A stretch of DNA of 58,063 nt from Gemmatimonadales bacterium (GTDB taxonomy: Bacteria; Gemmatimonadota; Gemmatimonadetes; Palauibacterales; Palauibacteraceae), in assembly GCA_050114915.1 (NCBI GenBank), contig JASFRN010000003.1, positions 1-58,063 on the forward strand, in the 5' to 3' direction. Positions 3,649 to 52,275 of this stretch are shown piece by piece. Position 1 is the first letter of the stretch; each line of letters starts with the position of its first letter. The notes under the pieces are model-generated. The model ran no database searches, was not told where the DNA came from, and was given only the letters and a program-made list of their open reading frames with translations. The position numbers and the translations under genes are program-made.

Positions 3649-4452
3649 TCAGCGGACCTGCAGGGTGGTCTCCGCCCGACCCGCGTTCCCCGTCTCGGCC
3701 GACACCGCCCGGACCTCGAGCCGGTACTCGCCCGCGGCGGGCGCGCCGAGCGACCCCTCGTAGGTGCTGTCGCCTCCCGAGTACTCGAGCGGCTCTTCGG
3801 CGGCGACGGCGCCGTCCGGCCCGATCAGGCGCGCCGTCACCGCGGGCGCCTCCCACAGGCCGCCCGGGGCGGTGGGGCAGGAGCAAAGCATGCGAACGCG
3901 GGCCCGCACGTCGATCCCGCTCCCCGCGGCCGCCTGCTCGGGCGCCTCGAGGATTTCGACGATGTAGCCCCACAACTCGAGCACGACCCCGTCCCCGGCC
4001 ACGTCCTCGCCCGGCACGAGCAGCAAAGTCGTCGAGGCGCTCGTGAGCGCTTGCGGGAAATCGAGTGGTCCCTCGGCTTCGACCGTGATCATCCGCGGGG
4101 TGGCCAGGTCCAGCGCCGTCGAGTAGACGGCGGCTCCCGGCGTCGTGAACACGTCGGCGTTGCGCTCGCGGGCGTCCATGATCAACCCCGTGTCACCGGT
4201 GCCACCCTCGTGCACGCCTTCGGCCAGCACCTCGCCGCTGGCGGCGTCGCGCACCGTGACCCGCGCGCCGCCGACGGAGCTTCCGATGAGCTTCGCGTCT
4301 CGGGCGACGACGTGAACCGTGAGCCGGGTCGTGTCCGACGCGGCCCGCGCGGCCGGCGAAGCGTCGCACGCGGCGAGCGTCACGAGACCGATCATGGTTC
4401 CGATCATGCCGATCGATGGCAGGAGCGCGCCGCATCGGCGGCTGGAGCGCAT
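3649..4452 (-). CDS. Conserved-looking hypothetical lipoprotein
   Basis: Lipobox LAAC, beta-rich mature region and a CSCP motif. GAGGA SD before ATG at 4452. Confidence 0.7.
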   Translation of the reverse strand: MRSSRRCGALLPSIGMIGTMIGLVTLAACDASPAARAASDTTRLTVHVVARDAKLIGSSVGGARVTVRDAASGEVLAEGVHEGGTGDTGLIMDARERNADVFTTPGAAVYSTALDLATPRMITVEAEGPLDFPQALTSASTTLLLVPGEDVAGDGVVLELWGYIVEILEAPEQAAAGSGIDVRARVRMLCSCPTAPGGLWEAPAVTARLIGPDGAVAAEEPLEYSGGDSTYEGSLGAPAAGEYRLEVRAVSAETGNAGRAETTLQVR

Positions 4453-5310: not shown

Positions 5311-5511
5311 TCAGACCCGCGGCTTGGGCCCCAGCGCGTACCAGAACAGGCAGCCGAAAACGGGTACCGCGAGGACGACGGCTGCCCAGAGGACGATTTC
5401 GCGGATGCCCGGCCGGGCCTTCACGATCAGGCCGATCGACCATACGTCGAGGACCAGGAGCAGGAAGGCGAGGGCCCACCGGGTGTCCAGGGCGAGGATC
5501 CAGTCGAGCAT
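5311..5511 (-). CDS. Small membrane protein (PLDc_N-like)
   Basis: 66 aa, two hydrophobic helices, LDVWSI...ILWAAVVLAVPVFGCLFWYALG pattern. Starts 4 nt after the ABC transporter stop. Confidence 0.75.
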   Translation of the reverse strand: MLDWILALDTRWALAFLLLVLDVWSIGLIVKARPGIREIVLWAAVVLAVPVFGCLFWYALGPKPRV

Positions 5512-5515
5512 GGAG

Positions 5516-12435: not shown

Positions 12436-14982
12436 ATGGAAATCCTCGACAGAACCGACCGGATCGAACAGCGTCTGCTGGAAGACGAGATGCGAGATTC
12501 GTTCATCGACTATTCGATGAGCGTCATCGTCCAGCGGGCCCTTCCCGACGTTCGTGACGGCCTGAAGCCGGTGCACCGCCGGATCCTCTACGCGATGCAC
12601 GAGGGCGGGCTGGCGCCGAACCGGCCGTACAAGAAGAGCGCGACCGTGGTCGGTGACGTGCTCGGCAAATACCATCCGCACGGCGACAGCGCGGTCTACG
12701 ACTCGCTCGTGCGCATGGTGCAGGACTTCTCGCTCCGCTATCCGCTCGTCGACGGCCAGGGGAACTTCGGCTCGATCGACGGCGACAGCGCGGCGGCCTA
12801 CCGGTACACCGAGGCGCGGCTCGAGCGTCTCGCCACCGACATGCTGACCGACATCGAGAAGGAGACCGTCGACTTCTCGCCGAACTTCGACGACCGGCTC
12901 ATGGAGCCCATCGTTCTGCCTTCGGGGCCGCCGAACCTGCTGATCAACGGCTCTTCCGGGATCGCGGTCGGGATGGCGACGAACATCCCGCCGCACAATC
13001 TCGGAGAGGTCGTGGCCGCCTGCCAGGCGCTGATCGACGACCCCGAGCTCACCTCCGAAGACCTGATGGAGTACGTGAAGGGCCCCGACTTCCCGACCGG
13101 TGGTCTCGTCTACGGGAAGGACGGGATCCGCGAGGCGTACACCGAAGGGCGCGGCCGGGTCGTCATGCGCGGGCGCGCTCACATCGAGGAGCGTCCCGGG
13201 CAGGGCGAGCGGATCATCGTGACCGAGATCCCGTTCATGGTGAACAAGAGCCGGCTGATCGAGCAGATCGCTCAGCTCGTGCGCGACAAGAAGGTGACCG
13301 AGATCTCCGACCTGCGCGACGAGTCGGATCGCGAGGGGATCCGGATCGTGGTCGACCTGAAGCGCGACGCGATCCCGCAGATCGTGCTGAACCAGCTGTT
13401 CAAGCACACGCAGATGCAGTCGACGTTCGGCGTGATCATGCTGGCGCTCGACCACGGCATCCCGAAGGTCATGACGCTCAAGGAGGTGCTGTCCCACTTC
13501 CTCGACCACCGGCACGAAGTCGTCGTCCGGCGCTCCGAGTACGATCTGCGGGCCGCCCGCCAGCGGGAGCACATCCTCGAGGGACTGAAGATCGCCGTCG
13601 ACAACATCGACGAGGTCGTGGCGATGATCCGCGGGTCCTCCGACACCGACGAAGCGTCCACACGGCTGCAGGAGCGCTTCGAGCTCTCGGCCGAGCAGGC
13701 GTCGGCGATCCTGGCGATGCGCCTCTCGCGCCTCACCGGTCTCGAGATCGAGAAGCTCGAGCAGGAGCTCTCCGAAGTCCGCGCCGAGATCGCCCGGCTC
13801 GACGAGCTCCTCGCCTCGCGCGAGCTGCGGATGAAGACCATCCACGACGAGCTCGCCGAGATCGCCGATCGCTACGACGATCCGCGGCGCACCGAGATCG
13901 TGGGCGAGACCGCGAGCTTCGATCCGGAGGACCTGATCGCCGACGAGCCGATGGTGATCACCGTCTCGAACCAGGGCTACATCAAGCGCATCCCGCTCGA
14001 TACCTACCGCCAGCAGCGCCGCGGCGGCCGGGGCATCGCCGGGATGGGCACCAAGGACGAGGACTGGGTGGAGCACCTGTTCACCGCCTCGGCCCACGAT
14101 TACCTGATGTTCATCACCGAGCGCGGACAGCTCTACTGGCTGAAGGTGCACCAGATCCCGCAGGCTTCGCGCACGTCGCGCGGCAAGCCGATCATCAACC
14201 TGCTGCCCGTCGACCACGACGAGACGATCGCGTCGATCGTGCGCACGCGGGAGTTTCCGGAAGACCGCTACCTGCTGTTCGCCACCCGCCAGGGGCAGGT
14301 GAAGAAGACCAGCCTCGCGGCCTACTCGAACGTCCGCAGCGTCGGGCTCAACGCGATCAACATCGTCGACGGCGACGCGCTGATCGACGTGCAGCTGATC
14401 GACCCGGGCAATCACATCCTGCTCGTGACGCGAAAGGGAATGGCGATCCGCTTCGACGAGAGCGACGCCCGGCCGATGGGACGCGCCACGCAGGGTGTGC
14501 GCGGCATCCGGTTGAAGGGTGGTGACGAGGTCGTCGCGATGGTCGTCGAGCGCGAGGAGGAGGCGAGTATCCTGACCGTGACCGGCAAGGGGATGGGCAA
14601 GCGGACCAGCATCTCCGAGTATCGCGTGCAGCACCGGGGCGGGATGGGCCTGATCAACTTCCGCCTCTCGGGCAAGACCGGCGACGTCGTGGCCGCGAAG
14701 GAAGTCGTGGACGACGACGAGCTGATGCTGGTCACGCGAAACGGCGTGATCAACCGGCAGCGGGCCGACGAGATCCGGGTGATCGGCCGCAATACGCAGG
14801 GGGTGCGGGTCATCACGCTGGACGACGGGGACGATCTCGTCGACCTGGCCCGCGTGGCCCGCGACATCGACGAGGGGGACGAGGACGAGTCGCTGGACGG
14901 CGAGGCGGAGAACGGCGAAGAGGCCGACGCCGACGCCGACGAGCTCGAGGCCGCCGGGACCGGAGATGGCGCCGAGGGCTGA
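12436..14982 (+). CDS. gyrA: DNA gyrase subunit A
   Basis: [27 protein letters not shown], catalytic AAAYRYTE, GyrA-box QRRGGRG, beta-pinwheel repeats and an acidic tail. GGAG SD. Confidence 0.98.
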
Positions 14983-15991
14983 CCTCGCCTCCGGGCTCGT
15001 CTCGCTCGACGAGATCCGCGGCGCCGCGGCGCGGATTCGGGGGACGGCCGTCCGCACCCCGCTGCTGGACTCGTGGCTCGGCCGTCCGGGGGGCACGCGG
15101 GTGTGGCTCAAGTGCGAGTCGCTGCAGCACGTCGGCGCCTTCAAGCTGCGGGGCGCCTACAACTTCATCTCGTCGCTGGACCCTGCGGAGCGCGTTCGCG
15201 GCGTCGTGACCTACTCCTCGGGAAATCATGCCCAGGCCGTGGCGTGGAGCGCCCGCGAATTCGGGATCTCGGCCACCGTCGTCATGCCCGTCGACGCCCC
15301 CACGATCAAGCGCGATGCGGTCCTGGCGATGGGGGGAGACGTCGAGCAGGTCGGCACCACGACCACGGAGCGCAAGGCGCGGGCCGAAGAGATCGTCGCC
15401 GGCGGCGGCGGGGTCATGGTCCCGCCGTTCGACGATCCCACGATCATCGCGGGGCAGGGGACCGTGGGCCTCGAGATCGTCGAGCAGCTCACGGCCGCCC
15501 GTGAGCGCGATCCCGGCGTCGGCCGGCTCGGTCTCGTGGTCGTGCCGATCGGCGGCGGCGGGCTCCTGTCCGGCGTGGCCGCCGCCGTGCGGCGGCTCTC
15601 CCCGGAAACCCGAATCGTCGGCGTGGAGCCCGAGGGCGCTCCCAAGATGCGCCGGTCGCTCGACGCCGGTGAGCCGGTGACGCTCGAGACCATCGATACG
15701 ATCGCCGACGGCCTGAAGCCCGTGCGGCCCGGCGACCTGACGTTCACCCACACCCGAGAGCTGGTGGACGACGTCGTGACGCTGACCGACGAGTCGATGC
15801 GCGATGCCGTGCTGTGGTGCTACGGCCGCCGGCTCGTCGTCGAGCCCAGCGGCGCGGCGGCCGTGGCCGCCCTGCGCTCCGGCCGCGTGGTCCCCGCCCT
15901 CACCGGCGAGACCGTCGCGGTGCTGTCCGGCGGCAACCTCGACCCGACGCTCCTCCAGCGCTGGATGGAGACGGGAGGCGCCGATGGCTGA
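14966..15991 (+). CDS. PLP-dependent threonine/serine dehydratase family protein, short form with no ACT domain
   Basis: [36 protein letters not shown] and LSGGN motifs. Confidence 0.9.
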
Positions 15992-16745
15992 GTCGTTCGT
16001 GGCCGTCACGGCCGGGCTGGCGACGAGCGAGGCCGGGATCCGGCGCTCGGTCGTCGAGGCCGGTTATCTGCAGGGCGTCAGCGTCGCCGGCCTGCTACCG
16101 CTCGTCCTGTCGCCGCTCGACGAGCCGTCCACCTGGCGCCGCCTGTTCGACCGGGCCGAAGCGCTTCTGCTCACCGGCGGGGCGGACGTCGATCCGATGC
16201 GCTACGGCGAGTCGATGAACGGTGCCCGCCACACGGCGCCCGAGCGCGACGAGATGGAGTTCTCGCTCCTCGCCACGGCGCTCGAGCGTGGCCTGCCCGT
16301 GCTCGCCATCTGCCGGGGCATGCAGGTGCTGAACGTCGCGCTCGGCGGGAACCTCCATCAGGACCTGGCGGCCGACTTCGACGCCTCGATCTCGCACGAC
16401 AGCTGGCGGGACGTCGACGCCTCGATCCACGGAGTCGCGCCGGACGCCCCGGAGCTCCTGCGGGGCGTGTTCAACGGCGCGCCCACTGTGCAGAACTCCG
16501 CCCATCACCAGGGGGTGGAGCGCCTGGCCGAGGGGCTGACGGCGGTCGGCCGGGCGCCCGATGGACTGGTCGAAGCCGTGGAGTATCGCCGGTCCGGGTC
16601 GTGGGCCGTCGGCGTGCAGTGGCACCCGGAGCGGAAGATCGATCGCGACGACGGCGTGAACCGCCGGCTGTTCGAGCGCTTCGGCGCCGCGGTGCGCGGC
16701 GGGCCCGACGGCGGCTTCGGCGGCAACGGGGCGGACCGCCGATGA
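15984..16745 (+). CDS. Peptidase C26 / gamma-glutamyl-gamma-aminobutyrate hydrolase family (class I glutamine amidotransferase fold)
   Basis: LLLTGGADVDP, RDEME, nucleophile AICRGMQ, NSAHHQG and VQWHPE. Confidence 0.9.
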   Translation: MAESFVAVTAGLATSEAGIRRSVVEAGYLQGVSVAGLLPLVLSPLDEPSTWRRLFDRAEALLLTGGADVDPMRYGESMNGARHTAPERDEMEFSLLATALERGLPVLAICRGMQVLNVALGGNLHQDLAADFDASISHDSWRDVDASIHGVAPDAPELLRGVFNGAPTVQNSAHHQGVERLAEGLTAVGRAPDGLVEAVEYRRSGSWAVGVQWHPERKIDRDDGVNRRLFERFGAAVRGGPDGGFGGNGADRR

Positions 16746-37132: not shown

Positions 37133-37432
37133 TCAGCCTTCGAAGCGTCGATGGTGTCCGAGGTCGTAGGCGCGGATCGCCAGGATCTCACGGGGCTGGA
37201 ACCCGATCTCCGACAGCGAGCGTGACTCGTCCTTCACCTGGCGTTCCGCGTACTCGACGTAGTAGTCGGCGGGATCGTCCACGTCGCGTTGCAGCAGCAT
37301 CCGAAGGCCTTCCGTCTTCACGTCGGCGACGGAAGCCGACGGCGGAAAATCCGCCACCTGTTCGAGCCATCGGTCGGGCATCACCAGGCGTACGGTGATC
37401 GCCCCGCCTACGGTGTCGGAGCTCGCGCTCAT
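37133..37432 (-). CDS. Small hypothetical protein, possibly beta-grasp (YukD/EsaB-like)
   Basis: 99 aa with a ubiquitin-like pattern: beta-beta, SVADVK helix, Y-x-V-x-Y, DESRSLSEIG, and a final strand. ATGA overlap with the upstream gene. Confidence 0.65.
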   Translation of the reverse strand: MSASSDTVGGAITVRLVMPDRWLEQVADFPPSASVADVKTEGLRMLLQRDVDDPADYYVEYAERQVKDESRSLSEIGFQPREILAIRAYDLGHHRRFEG

Positions 37433-37689
37433 ACGTGTCCCAGCGTGTAGAGGAAACGCTTGGTCAGATCGGTAACGTCGAGGCCGGCGACCCGGTCGGT
37501 CGACACGCGCACGTTCGTGTGGCCGTGGGCCCTGTCCACCCGGATCTCCGCCGTGCCGATGTCGCCGGTGAGCGTCAGAGCGCCGGCCTCGGGCTCCCGC
37601 ACGGCGAGGCGCGAGTTCGTCGCGAAGAACGTCTTCGCGCGCTCGATCACGTCTTCTGGAGACACCTCGGTCATCACGTGGTATCGCAT
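37429..37689 (-). CDS. Hypothetical protein, 86 aa
   Basis: Helix, four strands, helix pattern with typical codon usage. Coupled to the downstream gene. Confidence 0.7.
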   Translation of the reverse strand: MRYHVMTEVSPEDVIERAKTFFATNSRLAVREPEAGALTLTGDIGTAEIRVDRAHGHTNVRVSTDRVAGLDVTDLTKRFLYTLGHV

Positions 37690-40594: not shown

Positions 40595-42043
40595 CTAGTA
40601 GACGGGCAGGTCCGGGTCCACGTCCCGCGCCCAGCCGTTGATGCCCCCGGCCAGGTTCAGCGCCCGATCGAATCCGCGGCTGTGGAGGAACTCCACCACC
40701 TCGGCGGATCGCCGTCCCGTCCGGCAGAACCACACCGAGTCACGCTCGGGATCGAGGTCGCCGAGACGCGCCTCGAGCTCGTCCATCGGGATCGCCACGG
40801 CGCCGAGATCGTCGAGGTTCGACACCTCGTGCTCTTCGACCTCCCGCACGTCTACGAGGACGCCCGCCCATCCGGCGTCGATCATCTCGCGCAGCTCGCG
40901 CGCGTCCACTTCCGGCAGCGGCACGGGGAGGTGAAAGTCGTCGGGGACGTCGAACGCGGACCCTTCCTCGTCCACGCCGCAGAATGCCTCGTAATCGATC
41001 GGCTCCGTGATCGTCGGGGCGTCACCGCAGGCGGGGCAGGCCGGATCGCGTCGCACCTCGACGGTGCGGTACTCCTGTCCCAGCGCGTCGATCAGTAGCA
41101 GGCGGCCGACCAGCGGCTCACCGAGGCCCGTGATCAGCTTGATCGCCTCGGTGGCCTGGATCGAGCCCACGATGCCGGGGAGGGCCCCCAGCACGCCCGC
41201 CTCCGCGCAGCTCGGCACGAGGCCGGCGGGCGGCGGATCGCGGAACAGGCAGCGGTAGCACGGCCCGTCCGGGGCACCGAACACGGACGCCTGGCCGTCG
41301 AACCGGAAGATCGCCCCGTACACGAGCGGAATGCCGAGGAGCACGCAGACGTCGTTGACGAGGTAGCGGGTGGGGAAGTTGTCGCTCCCGTCGAGCACGA
41401 CGTCCCATCCCTCCAGGACAGCCCGCGCGTTCTCCGAGGTGAGCCGTTCGGGAACCTCCACGATCTCCACGTCTGGATTCAGGGCTTCGAGGCGGGCCCG
41501 GCCCGAGGTCGTCTTCGAGGCGCCGACGTCGTTCGTGTCGTGGAGGATCTGCCGATGCAGGTTCGAAAGCTCCACCCGATCGCCGTCGACGAGGCCGATC
41601 CGACCGACGCCCGCAGCCGCCAGGTAGAGCGCCGCGGGCGAGCCCAGGCCGCCGGCTCCGACGACCAGCGCCGATGCGGCCTTGAGCCGCTCCTGCCCGG
41701 CGGCGCCGAGGCCCGGCAGGATCAGCTGCCGGTGATAGCGGATCTTCTCCTCGCGGCTCAGCGGACGCCCTCCGGCGATCGACGGCACGATCGTGAGTTC
41801 GGCGGCGGCCGTGATCTGGCGCTCCTCCGACGTCAGGGTCCGGACGTCGCGGCCGTCGAGAAACAGATTGACATGAGGCCGCACCGAGCCGTCGTCGGAC
41901 AGGAGCCGGTCGGCCAGGGCCGGGCACTGCGTCCGCACCGCATCCAGGGCTTCGGCGACGGTTCCGGCCTCGACGTCGAGCGTCGCCCGCCCGCTCGTGA
42001 ATTCGCGCAGCGGGACCGGAACGTGGAGGCTCACCGCGGGCAC
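40595..42043 (-). CDS. Fusion of MoaD/ThiS-like Ubl, MoeB/ThiF (E1-like) adenylyltransferase and rhodanese
   Basis: Ubl ending PSIAGG continues in frame into RYHRQ, VGAGGLG, SNLHRQ, CYRC, PSCAEAGVLG, CPAC and rhodanese CRTGRRS. Start at GTG 42043 (GGAGG SD) or GTG 42034. Confidence 0.92.
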   Translation of the reverse strand: MPAVSLHVPVPLREFTSGRATLDVEAGTVAEALDAVRTQCPALADRLLSDDGSVRPHVNLFLDGRDVRTLTSEERQITAAAELTIVPSIAGGRPLSREEKIRYHRQLILPGLGAAGQERLKAASALVVGAGGLGSPAALYLAAAGVGRIGLVDGDRVELSNLHRQILHDTNDVGASKTTSGRARLEALNPDVEIVEVPERLTSENARAVLEGWDVVLDGSDNFPTRYLVNDVCVLLGIPLVYGAIFRFDGQASVFGAPDGPCYRCLFRDPPPAGLVPSCAEAGVLGALPGIVGSIQATEAIKLITGLGEPLVGRLLLIDALGQEYRTVEVRRDPACPACGDAPTITEPIDYEAFCGVDEEGSAFDVPDDFHLPVPLPEVDARELREMIDAGWAGVLVDVREVEEHEVSNLDDLGAVAIPMDELEARLGDLDPERDSVWFCRTGRRSAEVVEFLHSRGFDRALNLAGGINGWARDVDPDLPVY

Positions 42044-42477
42044 GGCGACCTCCCGTCGACGACGAGGCGCGCCGGGGCCTCGTCGCGCCAGGCGAACAGT
42101 TCGGCCCCGCCATCCGCCGATTCGGCCGCGGCGCGGTCGCCGATCACGACGTACCAGTAGCCCGCCAGCGCTTCCGCCGCGTCCAGCGCCGAGAAGTCGG
42201 CCGGACCGTGGGGGTGGGAGTGATAGAAACCGATCACGGAAGCCGTGCGGAAGAGGGGCTCGAGGTCGGCCGGATCGACGCGATACGCGTCGCGCGGCCG
42301 TTCCGCCCGGTTGGGAAGCGGCACGATGTCGACGACCGTCGCTCCCTCTCCGGTCTCGTGGCCGAGCAGCGCGCCGCAAACCTCTTCCGGGCGACCCGCC
42401 CGGGCCGCGGCGACGAGTCGTCGCCGCAGCTCTGCCGGCAGGCGGAGGGCAGGAGCCTCCGGGTCAGTCGACGGCAT
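42031..42477 (-). CDS. JAB/MPN (M67) metalloprotease
   Basis: EEVCGALLG and GFYHSHPHGPADFSALD give a complete E...HxH-x7-S-x2-D motif. Confidence 0.92.
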   Translation of the reverse strand: MPSTDPEAPALRLPAELRRRLVAAARAGRPEEVCGALLGHETGEGATVVDIVPLPNRAERPRDAYRVDPADLEPLFRTASVIGFYHSHPHGPADFSALDAAEALAGYWYVVIGDRAAAESADGGAELFAWRDEAPARLVVDGRSPCPR

Positions 42478-43138
42478 CGATGGCCGCGCGAATCGCCGCG
42501 TAGTTCTCGCCGATGCTGCCCGCGCCCCGGAAGATCGAAGACCCGGCCACCAGCACGTCGGCGCCGGCCCGCGCGGCCCCGGGGGCGGTCTCGACGCCGA
42601 TGCCGCCGTCGACCTGTACGTGCAGCCCCTCGATCCCGGCGGCGGCCGCCATCTCTCGCACCCGGGAGACTTTGGCGACGGCCGCTTCGATGAACGCCTG
42701 CCCCCCGAATCCGGGGTTCACCGTCATCACGAGCACGAGGTCGAGCGCCGGGAGGATCTCCCGCAGCGTCTCGACCGGCGTGGCCGGGTTCAAGGCCACC
42801 CCGACCCGCGGGCCGAGGCGGCGGATTTCGTGCACGTCCCGGTGAAGATGCGTGGAGGCTTCCTGGTGCACCGTGATCATGTCGGCCCCGGCCTCGGCGA
42901 ACGGAGCCAGGAAATCTTCCGGGTTGTCGATCATCAGGTGCACGTCGATGAACGAATCGGTGACTCGTCGCAGCGACTTCAGCACCGGGATGCCGATGCT
43001 CAGGTTCGGCACGTAGTGCCCGTCCATCACGTCGAAGTGAAACCAGGTGGCGCCGGCCGCTTCGCAGTCGGCCACCTCGTCGCCCAGGCGGGCGAAGTCG
43101 GCGGCGAGCAGCGAGGGGGCGAGGATTCGTTCGCGCAC
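42464..43138 (-). CDS. rpe: Ribulose-phosphate 3-epimerase
   Basis: APSLLAADF, HFDVMDGHYVPN, DVHLMI, MTVNPGFGGQ and QVDGG. Confidence 0.97.
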   Translation of the reverse strand: MRERILAPSLLAADFARLGDEVADCEAAGATWFHFDVMDGHYVPNLSIGIPVLKSLRRVTDSFIDVHLMIDNPEDFLAPFAEAGADMITVHQEASTHLHRDVHEIRRLGPRVGVALNPATPVETLREILPALDLVLVMTVNPGFGGQAFIEAAVAKVSRVREMAAAAGIEGLHVQVDGGIGVETAPGAARAGADVLVAGSSIFRGAGSIGENYAAIRAAIDAVD

Positions 43139-43140
43139 GC

Positions 43141-44367
43141 TCAGATCACTCCAAGCTGGCCGCCCACCTTCGCCAGCGCCCGGAGCGCCCGGTCGAGGTG
43201 TTCGGTTTCGTGAGCCGCCGAGACCTGGCAGCGAATCCGTGCCTCGCCCTGCGGGACGACCGGGAAGCCGAACCCGATCACGAACACGCCCTCGTCGAGG
43301 AGCTTCGTGCTCATCTCGATCGCCTTGGCGGTCTCGCCGACCACGACCGGGACGATCGGCGTGTCGCCCTCGATCGGCGAGAATCCGAGCCCGACGAGCT
43401 CCTTGCGGAAGTAGGCCGTGTTCTCGCGCAGCTTCGTGACGAGCTGCGGGTGTGTTTCCAGCACGTCGACGGCCGCGAGGGCGCCCGCCGCCGAGTGCGG
43501 CGGGATCGCGTTCGTGAACAACTGGGTGCGCGACCGCTGCGTCAGGTAGTCGATCACCGGCCGGCTGCTGGCCACGAACCCCCCGGCCATTCCGCCGAGC
43601 GCCTTGCCGAGCGTCGAGGTGATGATGTCCACCTCGCCATGCATGCCGAAGTGCTCGGGCGTACCCCGTCCCGTATCGCCGAGCACGCCCGTGGCGTGTG
43701 AATCGTCAACCGCCAGAATCGCGTCGTAACGGTCGCAGAGTTCCCGCAGCTCGGGCAGCGGCGCGATCTCGCCCTCCATGCTGAACACGCCGTCCGTGAC
43801 GACCAGGCGGTGCCGGGCGTCCTTCGTCTCCTGCAGGAGCTCCTCGAGGTGGTCCACGTCGAGGTGCCGGTAAATGTGGCGCTGCGCCTTGCACAGGCGG
43901 ATCCCGTCGATGATCGAGGCGTGGTTCAGCGCGTCGGAGATGAGGGCGTCTTCCTCACTCAGCAGCGGTGCGAACAGCCCCTCGTTCGCGTTCCAGCACG
44001 AGGTGAAGGTGAGTGCGGCCTCGGTCTCGAGGAAATCGGCGAGGCGGTCTTCGAGCTCGCGGTGAATGTCGAACGTGCCGCAGATGAAGCGCACAGAAGA
44101 GGTGCCCGCGCCGTATTTCCGCGCTCCGGCCTCCACCGCTTCTACGACTTCGGGCCGGTCGCAGAGGCCGAGGTAGTTGTTCGAGCACAGGTTGACCGTC
44201 TCGCCATAGCCTTCCAGCTCGACCACGGCGCCCTGTGGGCTCGCGATATGTTGCAGGCGCTTCCAGACGCCCTCGGCCTTCATCTCCGCCAGCTCCTGCG
44301 CCAGGCGCTGATTGAACCCGCGGTTCACAGCCGTCGACGTCACGTCGGATTCGTCGTACAGGACCAT
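43141..44367 (-). CDS. kbl: Glycine C-acetyltransferase (2-amino-3-ketobutyrate CoA ligase)
   Basis: SNNYLGL, VRFICGT, NHASIIDGIRLCKA, TDGVFSMEG, DDSHATG, STLGKALGG and ARIRCQVSAAH. Confidence 0.9.
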   Translation of the reverse strand: MVLYDESDVTSTAVNRGFNQRLAQELAEMKAEGVWKRLQHIASPQGAVVELEGYGETVNLCSNNYLGLCDRPEVVEAVEAGARKYGAGTSSVRFICGTFDIHRELEDRLADFLETEAALTFTSCWNANEGLFAPLLSEEDALISDALNHASIIDGIRLCKAQRHIYRHLDVDHLEELLQETKDARHRLVVTDGVFSMEGEIAPLPELRELCDRYDAILAVDDSHATGVLGDTGRGTPEHFGMHGEVDIITSTLGKALGGMAGGFVASSRPVIDYLTQRSRTQLFTNAIPPHSAAGALAAVDVLETHPQLVTKLRENTAYFRKELVGLGFSPIEGDTPIVPVVVGETAKAIEMSTKLLDEGVFVIGFGFPVVPQGEARIRCQVSAAHETEHLDRALRALAKVGGQLGVI

Positions 44368-44395: not shown

Positions 44396-45067
44396 TCACT
44401 TCTCGTAGTAGTCGTTCACCGTCCGCTCCAGCACCCTGATCTCCGACACCCGAATGGCGGGCCGGGATCCGAAGCTACCGCATAGTGTGAACCCGGACAG
44501 GGTTCCGCGCACGTATACGAGGCGTCGTCCCTCGAACGCGGGCTGCAGATCGGCGTTCGCCAGGGCGCGGCCGATCAGTGCGAACGGCCGCTGATTGCCG
44601 CCCAGCTGGCCCGGCCCGAACAGCGTGCAGGCACCCACGTCGCGCACGGTGCCGGTGCCGACGGCCCGCATCGACGAGAATGGACCGCCCTCCAGCGAGA
44701 CGATCCGTCCCAGCTCTCCGGTGGGCGTCCGGACGGCGTAAGCCCCCGCCGGGAGCTCGAGAGACCGCACCTCGTAGAAGCTGATCGGCAGACGCGAACA
44801 GCTGGTGTCGAAGGTCGTCCTCCGGCCCCGGAGTTCGATCGACGTGTCGGTGACGGTCGCGATCGCCGTGTCCAGGCGTCCGCAGGAGTTGGGCGTGATC
44901 GGCCCCGCGAACTCGAAGGCGAACGGAGCGCCGGCGGTCACGGTGTCGGGAAACGCGGCCCACGAGACCACGGCCTCGCTGGACGTGGGCTCACCGAGTC
45001 TCCAGCAGCCCGTTGCGAGCAGGAGAACGGCGAGGATCGGTGCCGGATGGATCCTGGATGTGCTCAA
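44396..45067 (-). CDS. Hypothetical lipoprotein
   Basis: Lipobox-like LATGC, beta-rich sequence and four more Cys. Confidence 0.65.
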   Translation of the reverse strand: MSTSRIHPAPILAVLLLATGCWRLGEPTSSEAVVSWAAFPDTVTAGAPFAFEFAGPITPNSCGRLDTAIATVTDTSIELRGRRTTFDTSCSRLPISFYEVRSLELPAGAYAVRTPTGELGRIVSLEGGPFSSMRAVGTGTVRDVGACTLFGPGQLGGNQRPFALIGRALANADLQPAFEGRRLVYVRGTLSGFTLCGSFGSRPAIRVSEIRVLERTVNDYYEK

Positions 45068-45145
45068 TGGACCGGCAATCTGACCGCGTCGCGCGGGGCC
45101 TGCAACCGACGGCAGGAACTAACGTCCGCCTGAGGCGATACAACC

Positions 45146-45907
45146 ATGCACGTACGAAGCAGGCGGACGCGCGCGTTCCTCGAACGCCGTGTCCGGGGGC
45201 GTGGTTACGGGGGGATGCCCGTGGGTGACAACGAACGTTCGGCCATCGCGCCGAGCCGACGGAATTCCGAACGGCAGCGGCGTGCGCTGTGGGTGGGGTT
45301 CGCCATCTCGGCGGCCATCCACGCGCTGTTGCTGTTCGGCTGGCGTTCGTCGTCCCAATCCGTCCAGGGGTCGCTCGCCGCCGGACCGAGGTCCGGCGAC
45401 TATCGAGCCGCCGCCGGCGGTGGGGCGATGACCGCGATCTCCATTGCGCCCCCGAAGCCGATCGAAGTGCCCGCTCCGCCCGCCACGCGTCCCCGCCTGC
45501 GTGATCCCCAGGTGGACGTACAGACGACGAGTCCGCCGATCATCGCGGCCTCCCTGTCGGGTCCCGGAAACCAGGGCGAGCGCTCCGGTCCGGGCCTGCC
45601 CGGCGCCGAGGGCGCCGGGGACGGGGGGTCCGATCAGCGGGGTGGAGACCGCTGGAGCGATCCCACCCCCCGGTCGATCACGCCGCGCTGGGATCCGCCG
45701 CGCGAGCTGAAGGGGCATCGCGTGACCTTCCGCGTCCAGGTGGACGCGACCGGCGAGCCGACGGGCGAGATCGAGATCCAGCCGAAGATCGCCGAATCGG
45801 CGTTCATGCGCCGGGTTCGGAACGACCTGCTGACCATGGATTATCTGCCCGGACGGCGCGACGGACGGCCGGTCCCGGGCTGGGCGGAATTGACGCTCAC
45901 CTTCTGA
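45146..45907 (+). CDS. TonB-like energy transducer
   Basis: TM with SAAIH (SxxxH), Pro/Gly-rich linker, and a TonB_C-like domain (V-x-F-x-V-x-VD-x-x-G...Y-x-PG-x-x-DG-x-PV...F). Start uncertain. Confidence 0.7.
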   Translation: MHVRSRRTRAFLERRVRGRGYGGMPVGDNERSAIAPSRRNSERQRRALWVGFAISAAIHALLLFGWRSSSQSVQGSLAAGPRSGDYRAAAGGGAMTAISIAPPKPIEVPAPPATRPRLRDPQVDVQTTSPPIIAASLSGPGNQGERSGPGLPGAEGAGDGGSDQRGGDRWSDPTPRSITPRWDPPRELKGHRVTFRVQVDATGEPTGEIEIQPKIAESAFMRRVRNDLLTMDYLPGRRDGRPVPGWAELTLTF

Positions 45908-45955: not shown

Positions 45956-46009
45956 ATGGCTGATTTCCTTCGTGCACAACGCTTCTCCGCCGTCTCTCGT
46001 CCGGTGTGA
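45956..46009 (+). CDS. Putative 17-aa upstream ORF coupled to sprA
   Basis: MADFLRAQRFSAVSRPV*. TATATT lies 8 nt upstream, and the stop overlaps the sprA GTG (GTGA). Confidence 0.3.
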   Translation: MADFLRAQRFSAVSRPV

Positions 46010-49000
46010 GCGGACCCTCGAGTCCCGGGGCCCCCCTCCGGTGTGCGTACGCCGTCCGCCGTGTCCTTCGGACGGCCGCCCTCCCATTGCTCCTGTGGTC
46101 TCCGGGTCTCGCGCCCGCGCAGGAGGTCGTGCGCCCCGACAGCGTGGCCGTCGACTCCATTCCGTCCGACACCCTCGATGTCGCCCGGGGCGCCGGGGGC
46201 GACTCGGTGATCGTCCTCGAGCCGCTCCAGGCCGAGGTCCCGGACACGGTGAAGGGTCTTCGCGTCGGGCTCGGCCGGATTCCGCTCGTCTGGTCGACCG
46301 ATCTGCGGGTCGCGGTCTCCCAGGCCCAACCCGAGGCGCGACAGCCGGGCGAGCCGGTGTTCGAGTGGCTCGCCGACCGCATCCGGGACGAAGAGGTGAG
46401 GCGGGCGGCGCGGCGGGACACGATGTGGGCCGCGATCCTGGATCTCGACAAGCTCCCGCCGGGCTTCGACGCGCGCCGGTTCTTCGGCCGTGACACCACG
46501 AGTCTCGTCGTCGACTCGGCCGGCCGTCCGGGACCGCGGCGAGGCAACGTGGATCTGCTCCCGGAGGCGCTCGCCGGGGTGGCGGACCTCGATCTCGACA
46601 TCGAGGGGACCGGCCAGATCGGCTCGCAATGGGAGTCGTTCGATCCCTGCACGGTGACCGCCGGCCAGCGCTGCAACCCGAGCGCCATTCCGACCATCAA
46701 GCCCGACTTCCAGCTCAAGGCCAGGGTCCAGGGGCTGATTTCGGAGCGCGTGCACGTGGACGTCGACTTCGACCAGACGCGCGAGTTCGACGCGACGAAC
46801 AACCTGCAGGTCTGGTACGAGGGGAAGCCGGGCGAGATCCTCGAGCGGGCCGACGTGGGCGAGGTCACGCTCGAGATGCCGCGCGGGTCGCGCTTCATCT
46901 CGCGCGGCATCCCGGCCGGCAACTTCGGCCTCAGCGCGCGCGGCCGCCTCGGCCCGCTGACGCTTCGCGGCGTCCTGGCGGAACAGAACGGCAGCGTGAC
47001 CTCTCGAAATCTCACGCTCGACGTGGGTGGCGGCGAGACCGGCGTCCTCCAGGATCTCGAGACGGTGGTGGACGATGCCAGCTACACGAGCGGGCAGTTC
47101 TTCTTCATCGTCGATCCACGCGACCTGGCCGGCTATCCGGACGTCGACGTGACGTCGCTGCAGGCCGCCGACGCCCCGGCGAATCTGCGGCCCGCCTCGG
47201 GAATCAAGCTGTATCGGCACGAGGTGCAGGCGGGGCAGCAGAACATCGAAGACGGGGTGATCCAAGCGCGTGCGATCGCCCGGCGACCCGCCGGCGCGGA
47301 TCCCGCGCTCCCCGACTCGGCCGAGTTCCAGGGCTTCTTCCGTCCGCTGGTCGAGGGCGAGGACTACGTCGTGCACAGCAGCGGCCTGTGGATCGTGCTG
47401 AAGTCGCGCGCCCTCGAAGGCGAAGCGCTCGCCGTGACGTACGTGACGGCGGCCGGCGACACGGTGGGCGACTACAACGCCGAAGCCCTGTTCCGGGAGA
47501 TCGCCAACACCGGCACCGGCCAGCTCCCGGAGCTCGAGCTCCTGCGCGACCCGGCCACGCATCGGCCGGGCGGCGTGACGTGGGAGCGCGAGATGCACCA
47601 GGTCTACCGGATCTCGAGCTCCGACGACGTCGAGGCCGGCAGCGTCCAGCTCACGATCTCGCAGGGTCCGATCGAGTCCGGTCCGATCGTGCGCAACCTC
47701 GACGGGTCGGACTACAGCTTCCTCCAGATCTTCGGGCTCGACGAGCAGCCGACCGACGACAGGCTGGACGGTGGCCGGATCTGGCGTCCCGCCGCCTCCG
47801 GGGGGCAGGGCATCGTGACCGGCAGCTTCCTGGTGTTCCCGACCCTGGAGCCGTTCAAAGATCCGCCGCCGATCGCCGCGCTCGACGGCACGGCCTTCCC
47901 GCTCGCCGGGGGAGACCGGAACGTCGACATGTATGACGAGCCTGTCGATCAGCTGAGGCGCTCCAGCTTCCGCTACCGGCTCAACTTCCAGTACCGCGCG
48001 CGCAGCTCCGGCCGTGCGAGCGAGTTTTCGCTCGGCGCGATCGGGATCCGCGAGGGCAGCGAGCGCGTCACCCTCGACGGACGCGACCTCGAGCGCGGCC
48101 GCGATTACGCGATCAACTACGAGATCGGGCAGCTGGAGATCCTCCGGCCCACCGAGCTGTTCGGCACCAGCCAGAGTCCCGATCTGGAGGTGCAGTTCGA
48201 GCAGAAGCCGATCTTCCAGGTCCAGCCGACCAGCATTCTCGGGCTCACCGGCCAGTACAAGTTCGGCGAGAACAAGACGATCGACTTCGTGGGCCTGTTG
48301 CAGCGCGAGGGGTCGGTCCTGAACCGACCCGAGCTCGGCACCGAGCCCGGGGCCGTGAGCCTGGGCGGGGCCGTGGCCGATTTCGAGTTCCAGCCGGCGG
48401 CCCTGGACCGGTTCGTGAACGCGCTGCCGGGGATCAGCACCGACCTGCCCTCGAGCGTGAACTTCACCGCCGAGGTGGCCGGCTCCCTGCCGACGACGAA
48501 CCGGAAGGGCCTGACCTACGTCGACGATTTCGAGGGCAGCTCACGCCTCCGCATCGCCCTCGGGAGCAACGCGTGGCGGCGCGGCAGCGTCGTCAGCCGC
48601 GCCGACGCGGACGGCGACGACTTCCTGCCCGACGTGCCCGACCTGTCGAACCAGCTCCGGGGCGTATGGCAGTCACAATGGTCCTCCGACGGGCGAATCC
48701 AGGGTCCCCTTCCGACCAGCGAGATCGACCCGCAGATCAACACCCTGAATCCGCAGTCCACCGAGAGCGTGCTCTGGGTGTCGCTCAACGATGCGCCCCA
48801 GGGAGAGAACGGGTGGTTCACCATCACCCAGACCCTGTCGGAGACCGGGATCGACCTGACGGCCACGGAGTTCCTCGAGTTCTACGCCCTCACGCTGAAT
48901 TCCACGTCGTCGCGCATCGCGCTGATCATCGACATCGGTACGGTGTCCGAAGACGCCCTGGTCGCCGACTCGCTCGGCCTCCCGGCCGGCGTCGGCGTGC

Positions 49001-52000
49001 TCGACCAGGAGGTCGATCCTCTCGTCGGCGTGTGGGGCAACCAGGACGACACCGGGCTGTGGGACCAGGCCTGCGTCGCGGAACCCAACGTCACGGCCTA
49101 CCCGCTCAACGATCCGCGCGCCAACTGCACGAACAACAACGGCCGCGAGGACACCGAAGACCTGAACCGCGACAACTTCCTGAACCAGGACGAGCGCTAC
49201 ATCCGGTTCGTCGTGCCGCTGAACGGTCCGTCGCCGTACTTCGACCGCGAGACGTCCGGGAGCTTCCCGTTCCGGCGTTACCGCATCCCGCTGGCGCTGC
49301 CCGACCTGCTCGAGAACGTCACCGCCGGGGCGCGCCAGAACGTGAAGCACATCCGGCTCACCTTCGCGAGCGACCGGGCGGAGACGGTCCTCCTCACCCG
49401 GATGGAGTTCTCCGGGTCGCCGTGGCTGAAGCGCGGCGGCACCGGGAGCGTCGACGGGTTCGTGGGCGACGACCCCGGCACGGCCGGTCAGGTCGCGGTC
49501 GGCCCCATCGCCACCACGGACGGCGGGTACGTGTCGCCGCCGGGCATCTCGGACCAGCAGGCGCAGAGCACCGACGAGATCACGGCCGGTTCGCAGCCGA
49601 TCAACGAGCAATCGCTGCGGCTCCTGTTCGAAGACGTCCCCGCCGGGCAGCGGGTCGAGGTGTACCGGCGCTTCACGGAGCGACCGCGAGACTTCCTCCT
49701 CTATCGACAGATGCGCGCCTGGGCGCTGCCGGTGGAAGGCGACTTCGGACCCGATGCGCCGCTGCGCTTCTACATGCGGCTCGGATTCGACACCGAGAAC
49801 TTCTACCTCTATCGGACCCCGCTGCAGCCGCCGGTGGGCGACTCGCCGCAGCGGGAGGACTGGACCCCGGAGCGGTTCGTCGACTTCGACCGCTGGATCG
49901 AGCTGCGTGCGGTCGCGGAGCAGGAGCTCATCGCGGCCGGCGGGACCCTGCCGCCCGATTCCACGATCACGGTGTGGGACGTGGACGTCTTCCCGGACGG
50001 CGACAGCACGCACGCCGTCGTGGTCAGTGACCGGTCGCGGGCTCCGAACCTGGCGGCGGTGCGCGAGATCGCGATGGGCGTCGAGAACGTCGGGGACATC
50101 ACGGCGGGTCCCGGCGAGCTCTGGATCGACGACCTGCGGCTCGGCGACGCGACGGACCGCGCCGGCAGCGCGGTGCGGGCGGGCGTGGCGGTCGATCTCG
50201 CAGACATCGCGCACTTCGAGACGAACCTCACCCGGCGAAACCCCTTCTTCCGCCAGCTCGGCGGCACGCCGAGCTACGAGGCGCAGAACACGTTCGACTC
50301 ACGGGCGCGCCTGGAGTTCGGGCGGTTCCTCCCGTCCGGCCTCGGGCTCGCGATGCCGGTCGAGTTCCAGCATTTGTCGGACAGTTCCACGCCGTTCTTC
50401 ACGCAGAGCGGCGACGTGCTGGCGGAGCGGATTCCGAATCTCCGCACGCCGTCCAATTCCTCGACGCTGTTCAGCGTAGGGCTGTCGAAACGGACTCCGT
50501 CGGAGAATCCGATTCTGAATGCGACGATCGACGGCCTGACGCTGCGCTACTCCCGCCGCTCGCTGGAGCAGGTTGCGACCCAGAGCGAGACGCAGGGCCG
50601 ATCGTGGAGCGCCTCCGCCACGTGGTCGCGCTCGGTCACCGACCTTTCGTTCCCGATGCTGCCGGGCTTCCTGCGCACCCTGCTTGACGGCCTGCCGGGG
50701 TTCATCTCGAACTCGACGGTCGTCGAGAACCTGAAGAACCTCCGGTTCCGCTACACGCCGCGGCAGCTATCGGCCGGGGCGAGTCTGAACCAGAACCGGA
50801 CGGAGCGCCGCAGGTTCACGAGCTCGGTGCGCGGCGCCGAAACGGCCGTCGCGCCGACGATCGATCGCCAGCACACGCTCGCGCCACGGGCCGGCTTCCA
50901 GCTGCAGCCATTCCCGTCGCTCGTGGCGGGTCTGAACATCAGCGGTGTCCGCGACCTGGTCGATCCCTCTCTCAGGCTCGACGGCCCCGCGGCGGTGCAG
51001 GTGCTCGAGGACCAGCAGAGCGAGTTCCTCGGCCTGGCGATCGGCTGGGAGATGCAGCGCGCGGTCACCACCAACATCAGCTATCAACCCGAGCTCGCGA
51101 GCTGGTTCGACCCGCGGTTCACGCTGAACACGACCTATCAGTCGAGCCGCAATCCCTCGTACGTCACCTCGCTAGCCGAGAACGCGGACACGACCTTCGT
51201 GCGCGACGTTCGCCTCGGGCGCGACTGGACGCTGGACGTCAACGTGAAGCCGGTCGACCTGCTCACCATGCTGGGCGTTCCGCGCGGACCCGAGGCCGAG
51301 GGGCTGGCGGCCGGTGTACGCTCGGTGTGGGATCGGCTGCGTCCCGTTCGCTTTTCGTGGACGCGCACCGTGGCAGCCTCCTACGATCGGCGGGAGCTCG
51401 ACCCCCGGTTCGTCGATCAGCTCGTGTTCAACGGGTTCGAGCGGCTCCGGTTTCTCGAGGAGGGAGACACCGCATCGTCCGCGACCAACCGGCGCCGGTT
51501 CCAGCTCAGCGGCGGCGTGGACCTGCCCGTGAACCTCGCCGCGGAGATCGACTACGGCTGGACCGACAACGACGCGTACAACTTGCGCAGCCGGCGCGGC
51601 ACCTACGAGACGGAGTGGCCGTCCGTGCGGCTGCGCTGGCGGGGCGTCCCGATCCCGGGCTTCCTCGAGGAGCGCATGCGCACGATCACGCTCACCGGCC
51701 AGTGGCGGGTCCGTGACCGGGAGATCCGGACGTCGACGGGCCAGGACCAGGGGATCCAGAGCCTCGACCGCTCGGTGATCGTCACCTTCGTGTTCATGAA
51801 CGGTTTCAATCTCAGCTACGAGCTGACGAACAGCCGCAACGAGCGCACGGACGGCTCCGGGTTCAGCCGCTCCATCCGTAACTCCCACACCGTCCGGGGA
51901 ACGGGCACCGTGCCCCCGCCGGGCCTGCTCTCGTTCGCGAAGAACCCGCTGCGCCTGACGGCCGAGTTCGTCCTGAACGGCAATAGCGACTGCCGCGAGC

Positions 52001-52275
52001 TCGGTGGCACCGGCTTCACGGGGACGACGAATCCCTCGACGCTCGGTGGCGAGGGCTGCGTGGCACACATCGATCAGACCCAGAACTCCGTTCGCCTCGC
52101 GGCGGACACCGACTTCGCGAGCGGTCTCGGCGTCGGCGTACAGTTCCAGTGGGTGCGCCGCGCAAGCGCGGTCGGCACGCAGCAGACGTCCAATCAGTAC
52201 AACTTCGACGTGTTCGGACGCTTCCTGCTTCGCTCGAACACGTCCGACATCCCGCCTCCCGCCGCTACGCGATGA
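46006..52275 (+). CDS. sprA: SprA/Sov-like giant outer-membrane beta-barrel (T9SS translocon homologue)
   Basis: 2089 aa with a signal peptide. SprA-type segments recognised: VDFDQTREFDATNNLQVWYEG-x-x-GEIL...GEVTL, GSERVTLDGR-x-L-x-RG-x-DY-x-INYEIGQL, EDLNRDN-x-LN, GELWIDDLRL. Amphipathic strands throughout. Confidence 0.85.
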   Translation: MSGPSSPGAPLRCAYAVRRVLRTAALPLLLWSPGLAPAQEVVRPDSVAVDSIPSDTLDVARGAGGDSVIVLEPLQAEVPDTVKGLRVGLGRIPLVWSTDLRVAVSQAQPEARQPGEPVFEWLADRIRDEEVRRAARRDTMWAAILDLDKLPPGFDARRFFGRDTTSLVVDSAGRPGPRRGNVDLLPEALAGVADLDLDIEGTGQIGSQWESFDPCTVTAGQRCNPSAIPTIKPDFQLKARVQGLISERVHVDVDFDQTREFDATNNLQVWYEGKPGEILERADVGEVTLEMPRGSRFISRGIPAGNFGLSARGRLGPLTLRGVLAEQNGSVTSRNLTLDVGGGETGVLQDLETVVDDASYTSGQFFFIVDPRDLAGYPDVDVTSLQAADAPANLRPASGIKLYRHEVQAGQQNIEDGVIQARAIARRPAGADPALPDSAEFQGFFRPLVEGEDYVVHSSGLWIVLKSRALEGEALAVTYVTAAGDTVGDYNAEALFREIANTGTGQLPELELLRDPATHRPGGVTWEREMHQVYRISSSDDVEAGSVQLTISQGPIESGPIVRNLDGSDYSFLQIFGLDEQPTDDRLDGGRIWRPAASGGQGIVTGSFLVFPTLEPFKDPPPIAALDGTAFPLAGGDRNVDMYDEPVDQLRRSSFRYRLNFQYRARSSGRASEFSLGAIGIREGSERVTLDGRDLERGRDYAINYEIGQLEILRPTELFGTSQSPDLEVQFEQKPIFQVQPTSILGLTGQYKFGENKTIDFVGLLQREGSVLNRPELGTEPGAVSLGGAVADFEFQPAALDRFVNALPGISTDLPSSVNFTAEVAGSLPTTNRKGLTYVDDFEGSSRLRIALGSNAWRRGSVVSRADADGDDFLPDVPDLSNQLRGVWQSQWSSDGRIQGPLPTSEIDPQINTLNPQSTESVLWVSLNDAPQGENGWFTITQTLSETGIDLTATEFLEFYALTLNSTSSRIALIIDIGTVSEDALVADSLGLPAGVGVLDQEVDPLVGVWGNQDDTGLWDQACVAEPNVTAYPLNDPRANCTNNNGREDTEDLNRDNFLNQDERYIRFVVPLNGPSPYFDRETSGSFPFRRYRIPLALPDLLENVTAGARQNVKHIRLTFASDRAETVLLTRMEFSGSPWLKRGGTGSVDGFVGDDPGTAGQVAVGPIATTDGGYVSPPGISDQQAQSTDEITAGSQPINEQSLRLLFEDVPAGQRVEVYRRFTERPRDFLLYRQMRAWALPVEGDFGPDAPLRFYMRLGFDTENFYLYRTPLQPPVGDSPQREDWTPERFVDFDRWIELRAVAEQELIAAGGTLPPDSTITVWDVDVFPDGDSTHAVVVSDRSRAPNLAAVREIAMGVENVGDITAGPGELWIDDLRLGDATDRAGSAVRAGVAVDLADIAHFETNLTRRNPFFRQLGGTPSYEAQNTFDSRARLEFGRFLPSGLGLAMPVEFQHLSDSSTPFFTQSGDVLAERIPNLRTPSNSSTLFSVGLSKRTPSENPILNATIDGLTLRYSRRSLEQVATQSETQGRSWSASATWSRSVTDLSFPMLPGFLRTLLDGLPGFISNSTVVENLKNLRFRYTPRQLSAGASLNQNRTERRRFTSSVRGAETAVAPTIDRQHTLAPRAGFQLQPFPSLVAGLNISGVRDLVDPSLRLDGPAAVQVLEDQQSEFLGLAIGWEMQRAVTTNISYQPELASWFDPRFTLNTTYQSSRNPSYVTSLAENADTTFVRDVRLGRDWTLDVNVKPVDLLTMLGVPRGPEAEGLAAGVRSVWDRLRPVRFSWTRTVAASYDRRELDPRFVDQLVFNGFERLRFLEEGDTASSATNRRRFQLSGGVDLPVNLAAEIDYGWTDNDAYNLRSRRGTYETEWPSVRLRWRGVPIPGFLEERMRTITLTGQWRVRDREIRTSTGQDQGIQSLDRSVIVTFVFMNGFNLSYELTNSRNERTDGSGFSRSIRNSHTVRGTGTVPPPGLLSFAKNPLRLTAEFVLNGNSDCRELGGTGFTGTTNPSTLGGEGCVAHIDQTQNSVRLAADTDFASGLGVGVQFQWVRRASAVGTQQTSNQYNFDVFGRFLLRSNTSDIPPPAATR

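Follow-up and report, generated by a model that had tools for sequence, protein, structure and literature searches.

A CysO-type sulfur carrier fused to its own E1/rhodanese beside a JAMM protease gene: a putative pro-protein in a reduced operon of a Gemmatimonadales bacterium

The window analysed here is a stretch of 58,063 nucleotides from a Gemmatimonadales bacterium (contig JASFRN010000003.1, positions 1 to 58,063). On its minus strand, one gene encodes a ubiquitin-like protein (Ubl) of the sulfur-carrier type, an activating enzyme (E1) and a rhodanese as a single polypeptide, and the gene overlapping it upstream encodes a JAMM metalloprotease. We read the locus as a pro-protein, that is, a JAMM-released CysO-type carrier fused to its own E1/rhodanese, in an operon reduced by the loss of cysM, and put the probability of this reading at roughly 0.7. 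On gene content the module is the known gene set of the CysM/Mec+/CysO/MoeZR cysteine pathway, in operon types 4b and 4c.

The fused protein has 482 residues (coordinates of all features of the locus are in Table 1). The longest open reading frame runs from 42379 to 40595 (-), with a likely start at the GTG at 42043, which has GGGAGG 7 nt upstream, and the database gene call for an identical protein (P0001) likewise gives 482 residues. The earlier note on this DNA had seen a Ubl that ends in IAGG and continues into an E1 and a rhodanese, and this is confirmed by the open reading frame, by the Pfam domains and by recurrence in relatives; the nucleotide loop, two zinc-binding CxxC pairs, catalytic-type Cys and rhodanese Cys that it listed are all present. 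Among NCBIfam models the fusion scores 436.7 bits with MoeB, just below the equivalog cut-off, and 434.9 bits with MoeZ, where the cut-off of 647 is missed. Those PDB sequences that match the Ubl over its full length all end at GG: the best hit, 4n6e_B (labelled just 'ThiS/MoaD family protein' in the database, which we take to be Amycolatopsis CysO), 1v8c_A, SAMP1 and 3dwg_C. The last of these is M. tuberculosis CysO in complex with CysM (chain 3dwg_A), and the Ubl aligns with it from end to end.

Residues S88, A90, G91 and G92 are invariant in alignments of the Ubl family. In the fusion 390 in-frame residues follow the GG, so that the protein as encoded has no free C-terminal GG, and proteolysis is therefore needed to make one. 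In an AlphaFold2 model of the fusion, the predicted local distance difference test score (pLDDT) is 87.7 overall and falls below 50 at residues 89-91 only, which suggests that the junction is a flexible tail. The linker is near zero in the window's subclade (GG-R-PLSREEK), and the unfused E1s of close relatives start MSLGREEK, 1-3 residues past the GG.

The upstream protease gene, whose overlap with the fusion the earlier note had also described, encodes a Mec+/QbsD-like protein with an intact metal motif. Its stop overlaps the start of the fusion by 13 nt, and its own start overlaps the stop of rpe by 14 nt.

The fusion recurs widely. Full-length fusions of 470-525 residues make up about 90 of the 120 top-ranking protein clusters and come from many independent assemblies, and the top matches are Gemmatimonadota metagenome-assembled genomes. 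In these fused clusters the Ubl always ends in (I/V)VPSIAGG, then come 5 to ~60 low-complexity linker residues, and then a conserved E1 start, RYxRQ/H. In the window, too, no stop follows the GG.

Species-representative genomes were scanned for a Ubl motif taken from a 16-sequence alignment, which yielded at least 591 loci; the top 80 of them, together with three obtained earlier, were analysed. These 83 related loci were mapped by tblastn and synteny, which places CysM, and neither MoaE nor ThiG, beside the Ubl, although no MoaE or ThiG queries were run on them. The divergent JAMM genes of four fused loci were missed by tblastn and recovered by a scan for motif and open reading frame. The dominant gene order, on a single strand, is cysM - JAMM - Ubl - E1/rhodanese, with the JAMM orthologues placed between cysM and the Ubl, and it is seen in Gemmatimonadota, Acidobacteriota, Chloroflexota, Rhodothermales, Myxococcota and Armatimonadota, at least six phyla. 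A CysM-type synthase lies directly upstream in 58 of the 73 loci whose upstream sequence was long enough to score. Of the 73, 56 have both JAMM and CysM, seven have JAMM alone, two have CysM alone and eight have neither. Two Acidobacteriaceae loci (L043 and L066) have a split cluster, with cysM-JAMM 5-6 kb from the Ubl and E1 and on the opposite strand, which shows that adjacency of the components is not a requirement.

Of the 77 scorable loci, 33 have a fusion of Ubl and E1. A JAMM gene is adjacent in all 33 fused loci versus 34 of the 44 unfused ones (Fisher p = 0.004, uncorrected for phylogeny). Unfused Ubls also tend to extend past the GG: two of 47 such reading frames stop right there, and the others have 1-21 further residues, a few of them many more. 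The chain ends at the GG in 47 of 150 representatives of the family, an unbiased set, and is tailed in the remainder; the search of this representative library was used for post-GG tails alone, because fused proteins cluster with E1s and the fused fraction is not estimable there.

Some tails on CysO-like carriers are rich in Cys: CCCCCCL, ACACYCPCRMNA, CCPPAACCCR, CCR, CF and CCALI (carriers P0134, P0141, P0162, P0177, P0206 and P0258, and locus L034 at 4288..4326). A tail that opens with Cys mimics a Ubl-Cys adduct, the substrate hydrolysed by Mec+-type JAMMs. Two further proteins, P0156 (190 residues) and P0192 (172 residues), are tandem di-Ubls with two CysO-like domains that each end in GG, resembling a small poly-Ubl precursor.

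Cleavage after Gly92 by the JAMM protease, which the earlier note had proposed, is the best-supported candidate mechanism, well supported by inference from these comparative data and by published precedent. It is favoured because the GG is invariant while the linker varies in length, because every fused locus (33/33) has its JAMM gene alongside, because the unfused orthologues are nearly always tailed, because the Ubl of a JAMM-less relative (L091) ends with a stop right after the GG, and because JAMM and Ubl vanish jointly where they are lost. As to precedent, JAMM proteases cut a natural linear MoaD-MoaE fusion (PMC8832034) and trim post-GG tails in the pairs QbsD/QbsE and CxnF/CxnE (PMC5925218); the passages on fused MoaX in PMC4326299 make cleavage necessary for activity and name no protease; and JAB cleavage of a fused ThiS/MoaD to free its C-terminus was predicted in 2006 in passages of PMC1779556.

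The proposed sequence of events is as follows. The JAMM protease made from the overlapping upstream gene would cut after Gly92 and free the Gly-Gly carboxylate. The E1 would adenylate this carboxylate, and the rhodanese persulfide would turn the adenylate into a thiocarboxylate; both steps are established for the MoeZR/MOCS3/Uba4 family. In the ancestral and commonest form of the cluster, with cysM in first place, the thiocarboxylate would be consumed by the CysM-type cysteine synthase, and the same JAMM would hydrolyse the Ubl-cysteine adduct, like Mec+ of M. tuberculosis. The JAMM would cut whatever follows the GG, so that any tail length up to a whole E1 would be tolerated and Ubl and E1 would be free to fuse and to part. 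In the window lineage JAMM would be kept because the fused carrier depends on it to function, and the acceptor there would be a CysM encoded elsewhere or some other acceptor. Since relatives have a bare E1 at this position, the E1/rhodanese probably has other carriers to serve as well.

The absence of moaE, thiG, cysM and a tRNA thiolase from the operon, which had been remarked on before, holds for the whole window: Pfam scans of all sizeable reading frames and tblastn with CysM found no MoaE, ThiG, CysK/M or tRNA thiolase in the operon or the 58 kb, and the Pfam scans found no TtuA/NcsA-like gene in the window. The window's only PALP gene, at 14783..15991 (+), was considered as the missing cysM and rejected, since NCBIfam makes it a Thr/Ser dehydratase; within 14783..16745 (+) it is followed by a peptidase C26/class-I glutamine amidotransferase. 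The earlier note knew of no assigned role for such fusions in this context; that the system, taken as a class, lacks a role or an acceptor is not supported. The orphan reading fails because a CysM-type synthase adjoins the module in most related loci, and on this comparison of gene orders the window lacks an acceptor because its operon has secondarily lost cysM.

Relatives in Gemmatimonadota share a common frame of kbl, rpe, a variable part and the E1, followed by convergent serA and class-V aminotransferase genes. The variable part takes several forms: cysM-JAMM-Ubl fused to the E1 (L007, L015, L021 and L068); JAMM-Ubl fused to the E1 (the window, L005, L006, L008, L013, L088 and L089); a Ubl with a stop after the GG and a separate E1, without JAMM (L091); and E1 alone, directly after rpe (L001-L004 and L090). 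Locus L091, in the order kbl-rpe-Ubl-E1/rhodanese, has neither JAMM nor cysM, and its separate Ubl (5335..5619) ends in IVPSVAGG and a stop; it is the sole type among the Gemmatimonadota loci examined that bears a Ubl and lacks JAMM. Its E1 is 77-85% identical to ~15 clusters of 384-403 residues, and the L091-type state appears to be common.

The E1-alone state has left a trace of its origin in L090. There the E1 starts at an ATG inside the end of rpe, the same ATG that starts the JAMM gene of the window, and reads MPSDRGPGNRAT followed by RPLGREERV. Set against the window (L090 7978..8060 versus 42440..42500 and 41730..41800), these are 12 codons and then RPLGREE, the post-GG residues, and we take L090 to be an in-frame deletion scar that runs from the first JAMM codons to the GG of the Ubl. 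In a neighbour-joining tree of the E1 domain, made with no bootstrap, the E1-only loci nest within the clade that unites the window with its fused relatives, which implies at least two joint losses of JAMM and Ubl. By this reconstruction JAMM and Ubl were lost together in the window's closest relatives, after cysM had been lost from the operon in the window clade. Ratios of nonsynonymous to synonymous substitution (dN/dS), calculated for the window against L088, L089 and L005 at dS ~0.6-1.2, are 0.21-0.43 for the Ubl, 0.30-0.53 for JAMM, 0.11-0.14 for the E1 and 0.10-0.15 for rpe. The JAMM-Ubl module is still under purifying selection, weaker than that on its neighbours.

Several points weigh against the pro-protein reading. 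The related loci were chosen by the IVPSIAGG pattern, and none of the co-occurrence statistics is corrected for phylogeny. We infer every mechanistic step for the fused family. Several JAMM-less Ubls of Acidobacteriaceae keep 1-2 residues past the GG, so that adjacency of JAMM is not strictly required for tailed forms. As for cysteine synthesis in the source organism, cysM is absent from operon and window alike, and loci of the L091 type and in Acidobacteriaceae keep Ubl and E1 with neither cysM nor JAMM, so that the carrier may have another acceptor. M. tuberculosis CysM is specific for O-phosphoserine; the operon-linked CysM of L007 scores 207 bits to E. coli CysM versus 160 bits to that of M. 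tuberculosis, and because the operon type is nearer the E. coli enzyme, substrate details cannot be transferred from M. tuberculosis. For the same reason, and because they are syntenic with or without the module, the serA and class-V aminotransferase genes were not counted as evidence for a supply of O-phosphoserine to a CysM of the M. tuberculosis type. Finally, the repeated loss and raised dN/dS of JAMM and Ubl suggest that selection on them is weak in this clade.

Some of these points count in favour of other explanations. In lineages without cysM the Ubl could be mainly a modifier like SAMP, TtuB or Urm1, or a donor to an acceptor other than CysM, with JAMM as maturase and deconjugase. This would agree with the operon and window holding no acceptor gene and with the persistence of Ubl and E1 in several lineages without cysM, and there are matches to NCBIfam SAMP1 (56.8, cut-off 60), UbaA (320.6, cut-off 450) and desampylase (76.7, cut-off 130). 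All three fall short of their equivalog cut-offs, however, and neither a TtuA/NcsA-type thiolase nor an E2 goes with the module, whose dominant and ancestral partner is CysM; an important regulatory modifier would also hardly have been lost repeatedly, with its JAMM, from the nearest relatives, and we consider this explanation unlikely. Another view, that JAMM-Ubl is what remains, in decay and without function, of the cysM operon and that the E1/rhodanese alone matters in the source organism, draws on the loss of cysM, on the deletion of JAMM and Ubl at least twice among the nearest relatives, and on dN/dS values for both that are 2-4 times that of the E1. Those values are nevertheless well under 1 at the divergence given above, the window, L088, L089 and L005 all retain open frames, a complete JAMM motif and SIAGG, and the overlapping starts and stops are preserved, which makes a mere remnant improbable.

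The fusion might also stay uncleaved, with the Ubl as a docking or regulatory domain acting in cis on the E1, as proposed for Campylobacter Ubl-ThiF, and with JAMM in an unrelated or purely Mec-type role. Passages of PMC1779556 note that Ubl-ThiF fusions co-occurring with a standalone ThiS imply another role for the fused domain, and the almost absent linker in the window would suit such an arrangement. Here, though, the operon has no standalone Ubl gene, the linker varies freely beside an invariant GG, unfused orthologues at the same operon position are ordinary GG carriers, and JAMM, present at every fused locus, has in the clade without cysM been kept beside fused Ubls only, so that an uncleaved fusion seems distinctly improbable. 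That the fusion is an artefact of assembly or sequencing, a missed stop or frameshift past the GG, is just the general possibility for metagenome-derived sequence of 70% GC; it is refuted for practical purposes by the recurrence of the in-frame fusion, which is found across several phyla and many assemblies, in 33 genome loci and ~90 of the 120 top clusters. An anti-phage Ubl system of the CBASS Cap2/Cap3 or Bil kind was rejected as well: with PADLOC the generic E1 models reach at most 70 bits and JAB 19 bits, against ~435 bits with MoeB/MoeZ.

Table 1. Features of the pro-carrier locus and the genes upstream of it (window coordinates)
Feature	Position	Strand	Evidence or remark
kbl, glycine C-acetyltransferase	43141..44367	-	NCBIfam NF005394 532.9 bits, cut-off 460; opens co-directional run; context only
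rpe, ribulose-phosphate 3-epimerase	42464..43138	-	Pfam 257.7 bits; translationally coupled upstream; context, no functional partner
JAMM/MPN+ metalloprotease, Mec+/QbsD-like, 148 residues	42031..42477	-	Pfam Prok-JAB 65.9 bits
JAMM motif E...HSHPx7SxxD, intact	Glu stretch 42390..42373; HSHPHGPADFSALD 42222..42181	-	Motif search
Ubl + E1 adenylyltransferase + rhodanese, one 482-residue reading frame (CysO-type carrier on MoeB/MoeZ-R type E1)	40595..42043	-	Pfam, NCBIfam
Ubl, beta-grasp sulfur-carrier domain, residues 1-92, end IVPSIAGG	41768..42043	-	Pfam ThiS, residues 9-92, 25.5 bits, cut-off 22.5
IAGG, residues 89-92	41779..41768	-	No stop after
Gly91-Gly92 codons	41768..41773	-	Predicted scissile bond G92-R93, between bases 41768 and 41767
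ThiF/MoeB adenylation domain, residues 103-338	41030..41737	-	Pfam ThiF 274.7 bits; PDB sequence matches Uba4, MoeB, ThiF
Nucleotide loop GAGGLGSP	41659..41636	-	Motif search
Zn CxxC pair CYRC	41260..41249	-	Motif search
Conserved Cys in SCAEAG	41212..41195	-	Motif search
Zn CxxC pair CPAC	41038..41027	-	Motif search
Rhodanese domain, residues 381-473	40625..40903	-	Pfam Rhodanese 45.7 bits
Rhodanese active-site loop CRTGRRS	40726..40706	-	Motif search

The window has a G+C content of ~70%, and in it kbl, rpe, JAMM and the fusion are four co-directional genes. The earlier note had pointed to the placement of the module behind kbl and rpe; the position is right, and no functional meaning attaches to it. 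Relatives without JAMM and Ubl retain both genes at the same place beside a bare E1, and we therefore regard the arrangement as clade-specific synteny only and reject kbl and rpe as functional partners. Riboswitch, promoter and terminator signals around the operon do not rise above chance. An Rfam match to the Xanthomonadaceae small RNA Xoo5 at 45225..45359 (-) reaches 27.8 bits against a gathering score of 50 (E = 0.02) and is probably due to chance. Between kbl and a SprA-like gene for 2089 residues (46006..52275) lie two hypothetical proteins without a Pfam match, at 44396..45067 (-) and 45134..45907 (+). Unannotated reading frames of like size are found at that kbl-side position in L005, L006, L088, L090 and L091, matched by size and position, not by sequence.

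A further gene pair, 37133..37432 (-) and 37429..37689 (-), overlaps internally and is clade-specific; all the Gemmatimonadota loci examined have it, whether or not they also have JAMM and Ubl. The 99-residue product has 182 homologues, all of the source-named ones from Gemmatimonadota or a related marine benthic group, and no Pfam or NCBIfam match is found in any of them. It has an invariant end, ...IRAYDLGH..F.G and a stop, with a single C-terminal Gly. An AlphaFold2 model (pLDDT 70) has a beta-grasp fold with a disordered tail, which makes this a predicted ubiquitin-fold protein, and the best PDB matches of the model in Foldseek are ubiquitin and UBL domains, with a TM score of about 0.8 and a root mean square deviation of 1.8 A. 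The gene (37432..37133, -) lies 3.2 kb from the only E1 of the window, and a link with that E1 is a possibility only. We give a low probability to the idea that in Gemmatimonadota without cysM the released Ubl is a protein modifier or a donor to an undescribed acceptor, or else that the E1/rhodanese, which every relative keeps at its position, also activates this ubiquitin-fold protein. Either alternative, if true, would amount to a bacterial Ubl system that belongs to neither the sulfur-carrier nor the defence classes known so far.

On the pro-protein reading, precursors would be the routine form in which a prokaryotic sulfur-carrier system makes its Ubl, their tails ranging from one residue to a whole activating enzyme, and JAMM would be tied to maturation besides product release. 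The same logic is found in eukaryotic ubiquitin precursors cut by deubiquitinases, here in sulfur-transfer relatives, the presumed ancestors of ubiquitin signalling. Automatic annotation, which names such fusions just 'MoeB', is corrected. With one protease and one substrate, the locus is a simple system for the specificity of bacterial JAMMs, and the reductive series in Gemmatimonadota, in which cysM and then JAMM and Ubl jointly disappear, is a clean natural experiment on how the parts depend on one another.

Among known systems we compare the locus with the CysO pathway of M. tuberculosis (Burns 2005; O'Leary 2008). In that CysM/Mec+/CysO/MoeZR system of thiocarboxylate-dependent cysteine synthesis (Voss 2011, PMC3227635), as here, there are a beta-grasp carrier with a GG end, an E1 with a rhodanese that has its active-site Cys, and a JAMM, and CysM lies upstream in most of the loci related to ours. 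Unlike M. tuberculosis, where CysO ends at the GG and MoeZR is encoded elsewhere, the window has the GG inside a carrier fused to its E1 and lacks cysM, the E1 keeps both CxxC pairs in the manner of MoeB/MoeBR, and the operon-type CysM of the relatives is nearer that of E. coli. In the classification of Iyer, Burroughs and Aravind (2006), type 4b joins ThiS/MoaD, JAB and E1-rhodanese, and type 4c adds a cysteine synthase (passages of PMC1779556); in those terms the window has 4b-type gene content and its relatives are 4c. The Ubl-E1-rhodanese fusion, the near-universal tails after the GG and the reductive series are not described in those passages, and our literature search found no publication describing the CysO-E1 fusion itself.

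QbsE/QbsD, CxnE/CxnF and the MoaD-MoaE/DR0402 pair of D. radiodurans resemble the window in having residues or a protein after the GG and a JAMM shown or proposed to remove them, and M. tuberculosis MoaX likewise has a protein after the GG (passages of PMC4326299). The C-terminal partner in QbsE, CxnE, MoaD-MoaE and MoaX is a short tail or the acceptor MoaE, whereas here it is the activating enzyme. JAMM-matured pro-sulfur-carriers are recognized by residues past the GG together with an adjacent JAMM gene, and the window has both. Archaeal SAMP1/UbaA/HvJAMM1 and Thermus TtuB/TtuC are similar in sequence in all three parts, and HvJAMM1 also cleaves linear fusions (PMC8832034); the window differs from these systems in leaving the NCBIfam equivalog cut-offs unreached, in having no tRNA thiolase and in the fusion of the rhodanese to the E1. 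With eukaryotic polyubiquitin and ubiquitin-ribosomal protein precursors the locus would share a linear Ubl fusion and a dedicated protease acting at the GG, by analogy only, since protease class, fusion partner (an E1) and output (sulfur transfer) all differ. The idea of maturation by a protease was thus anticipated in the literature, and the fused variant in a reduced operon is a variation on a known sulfur-carrier system.

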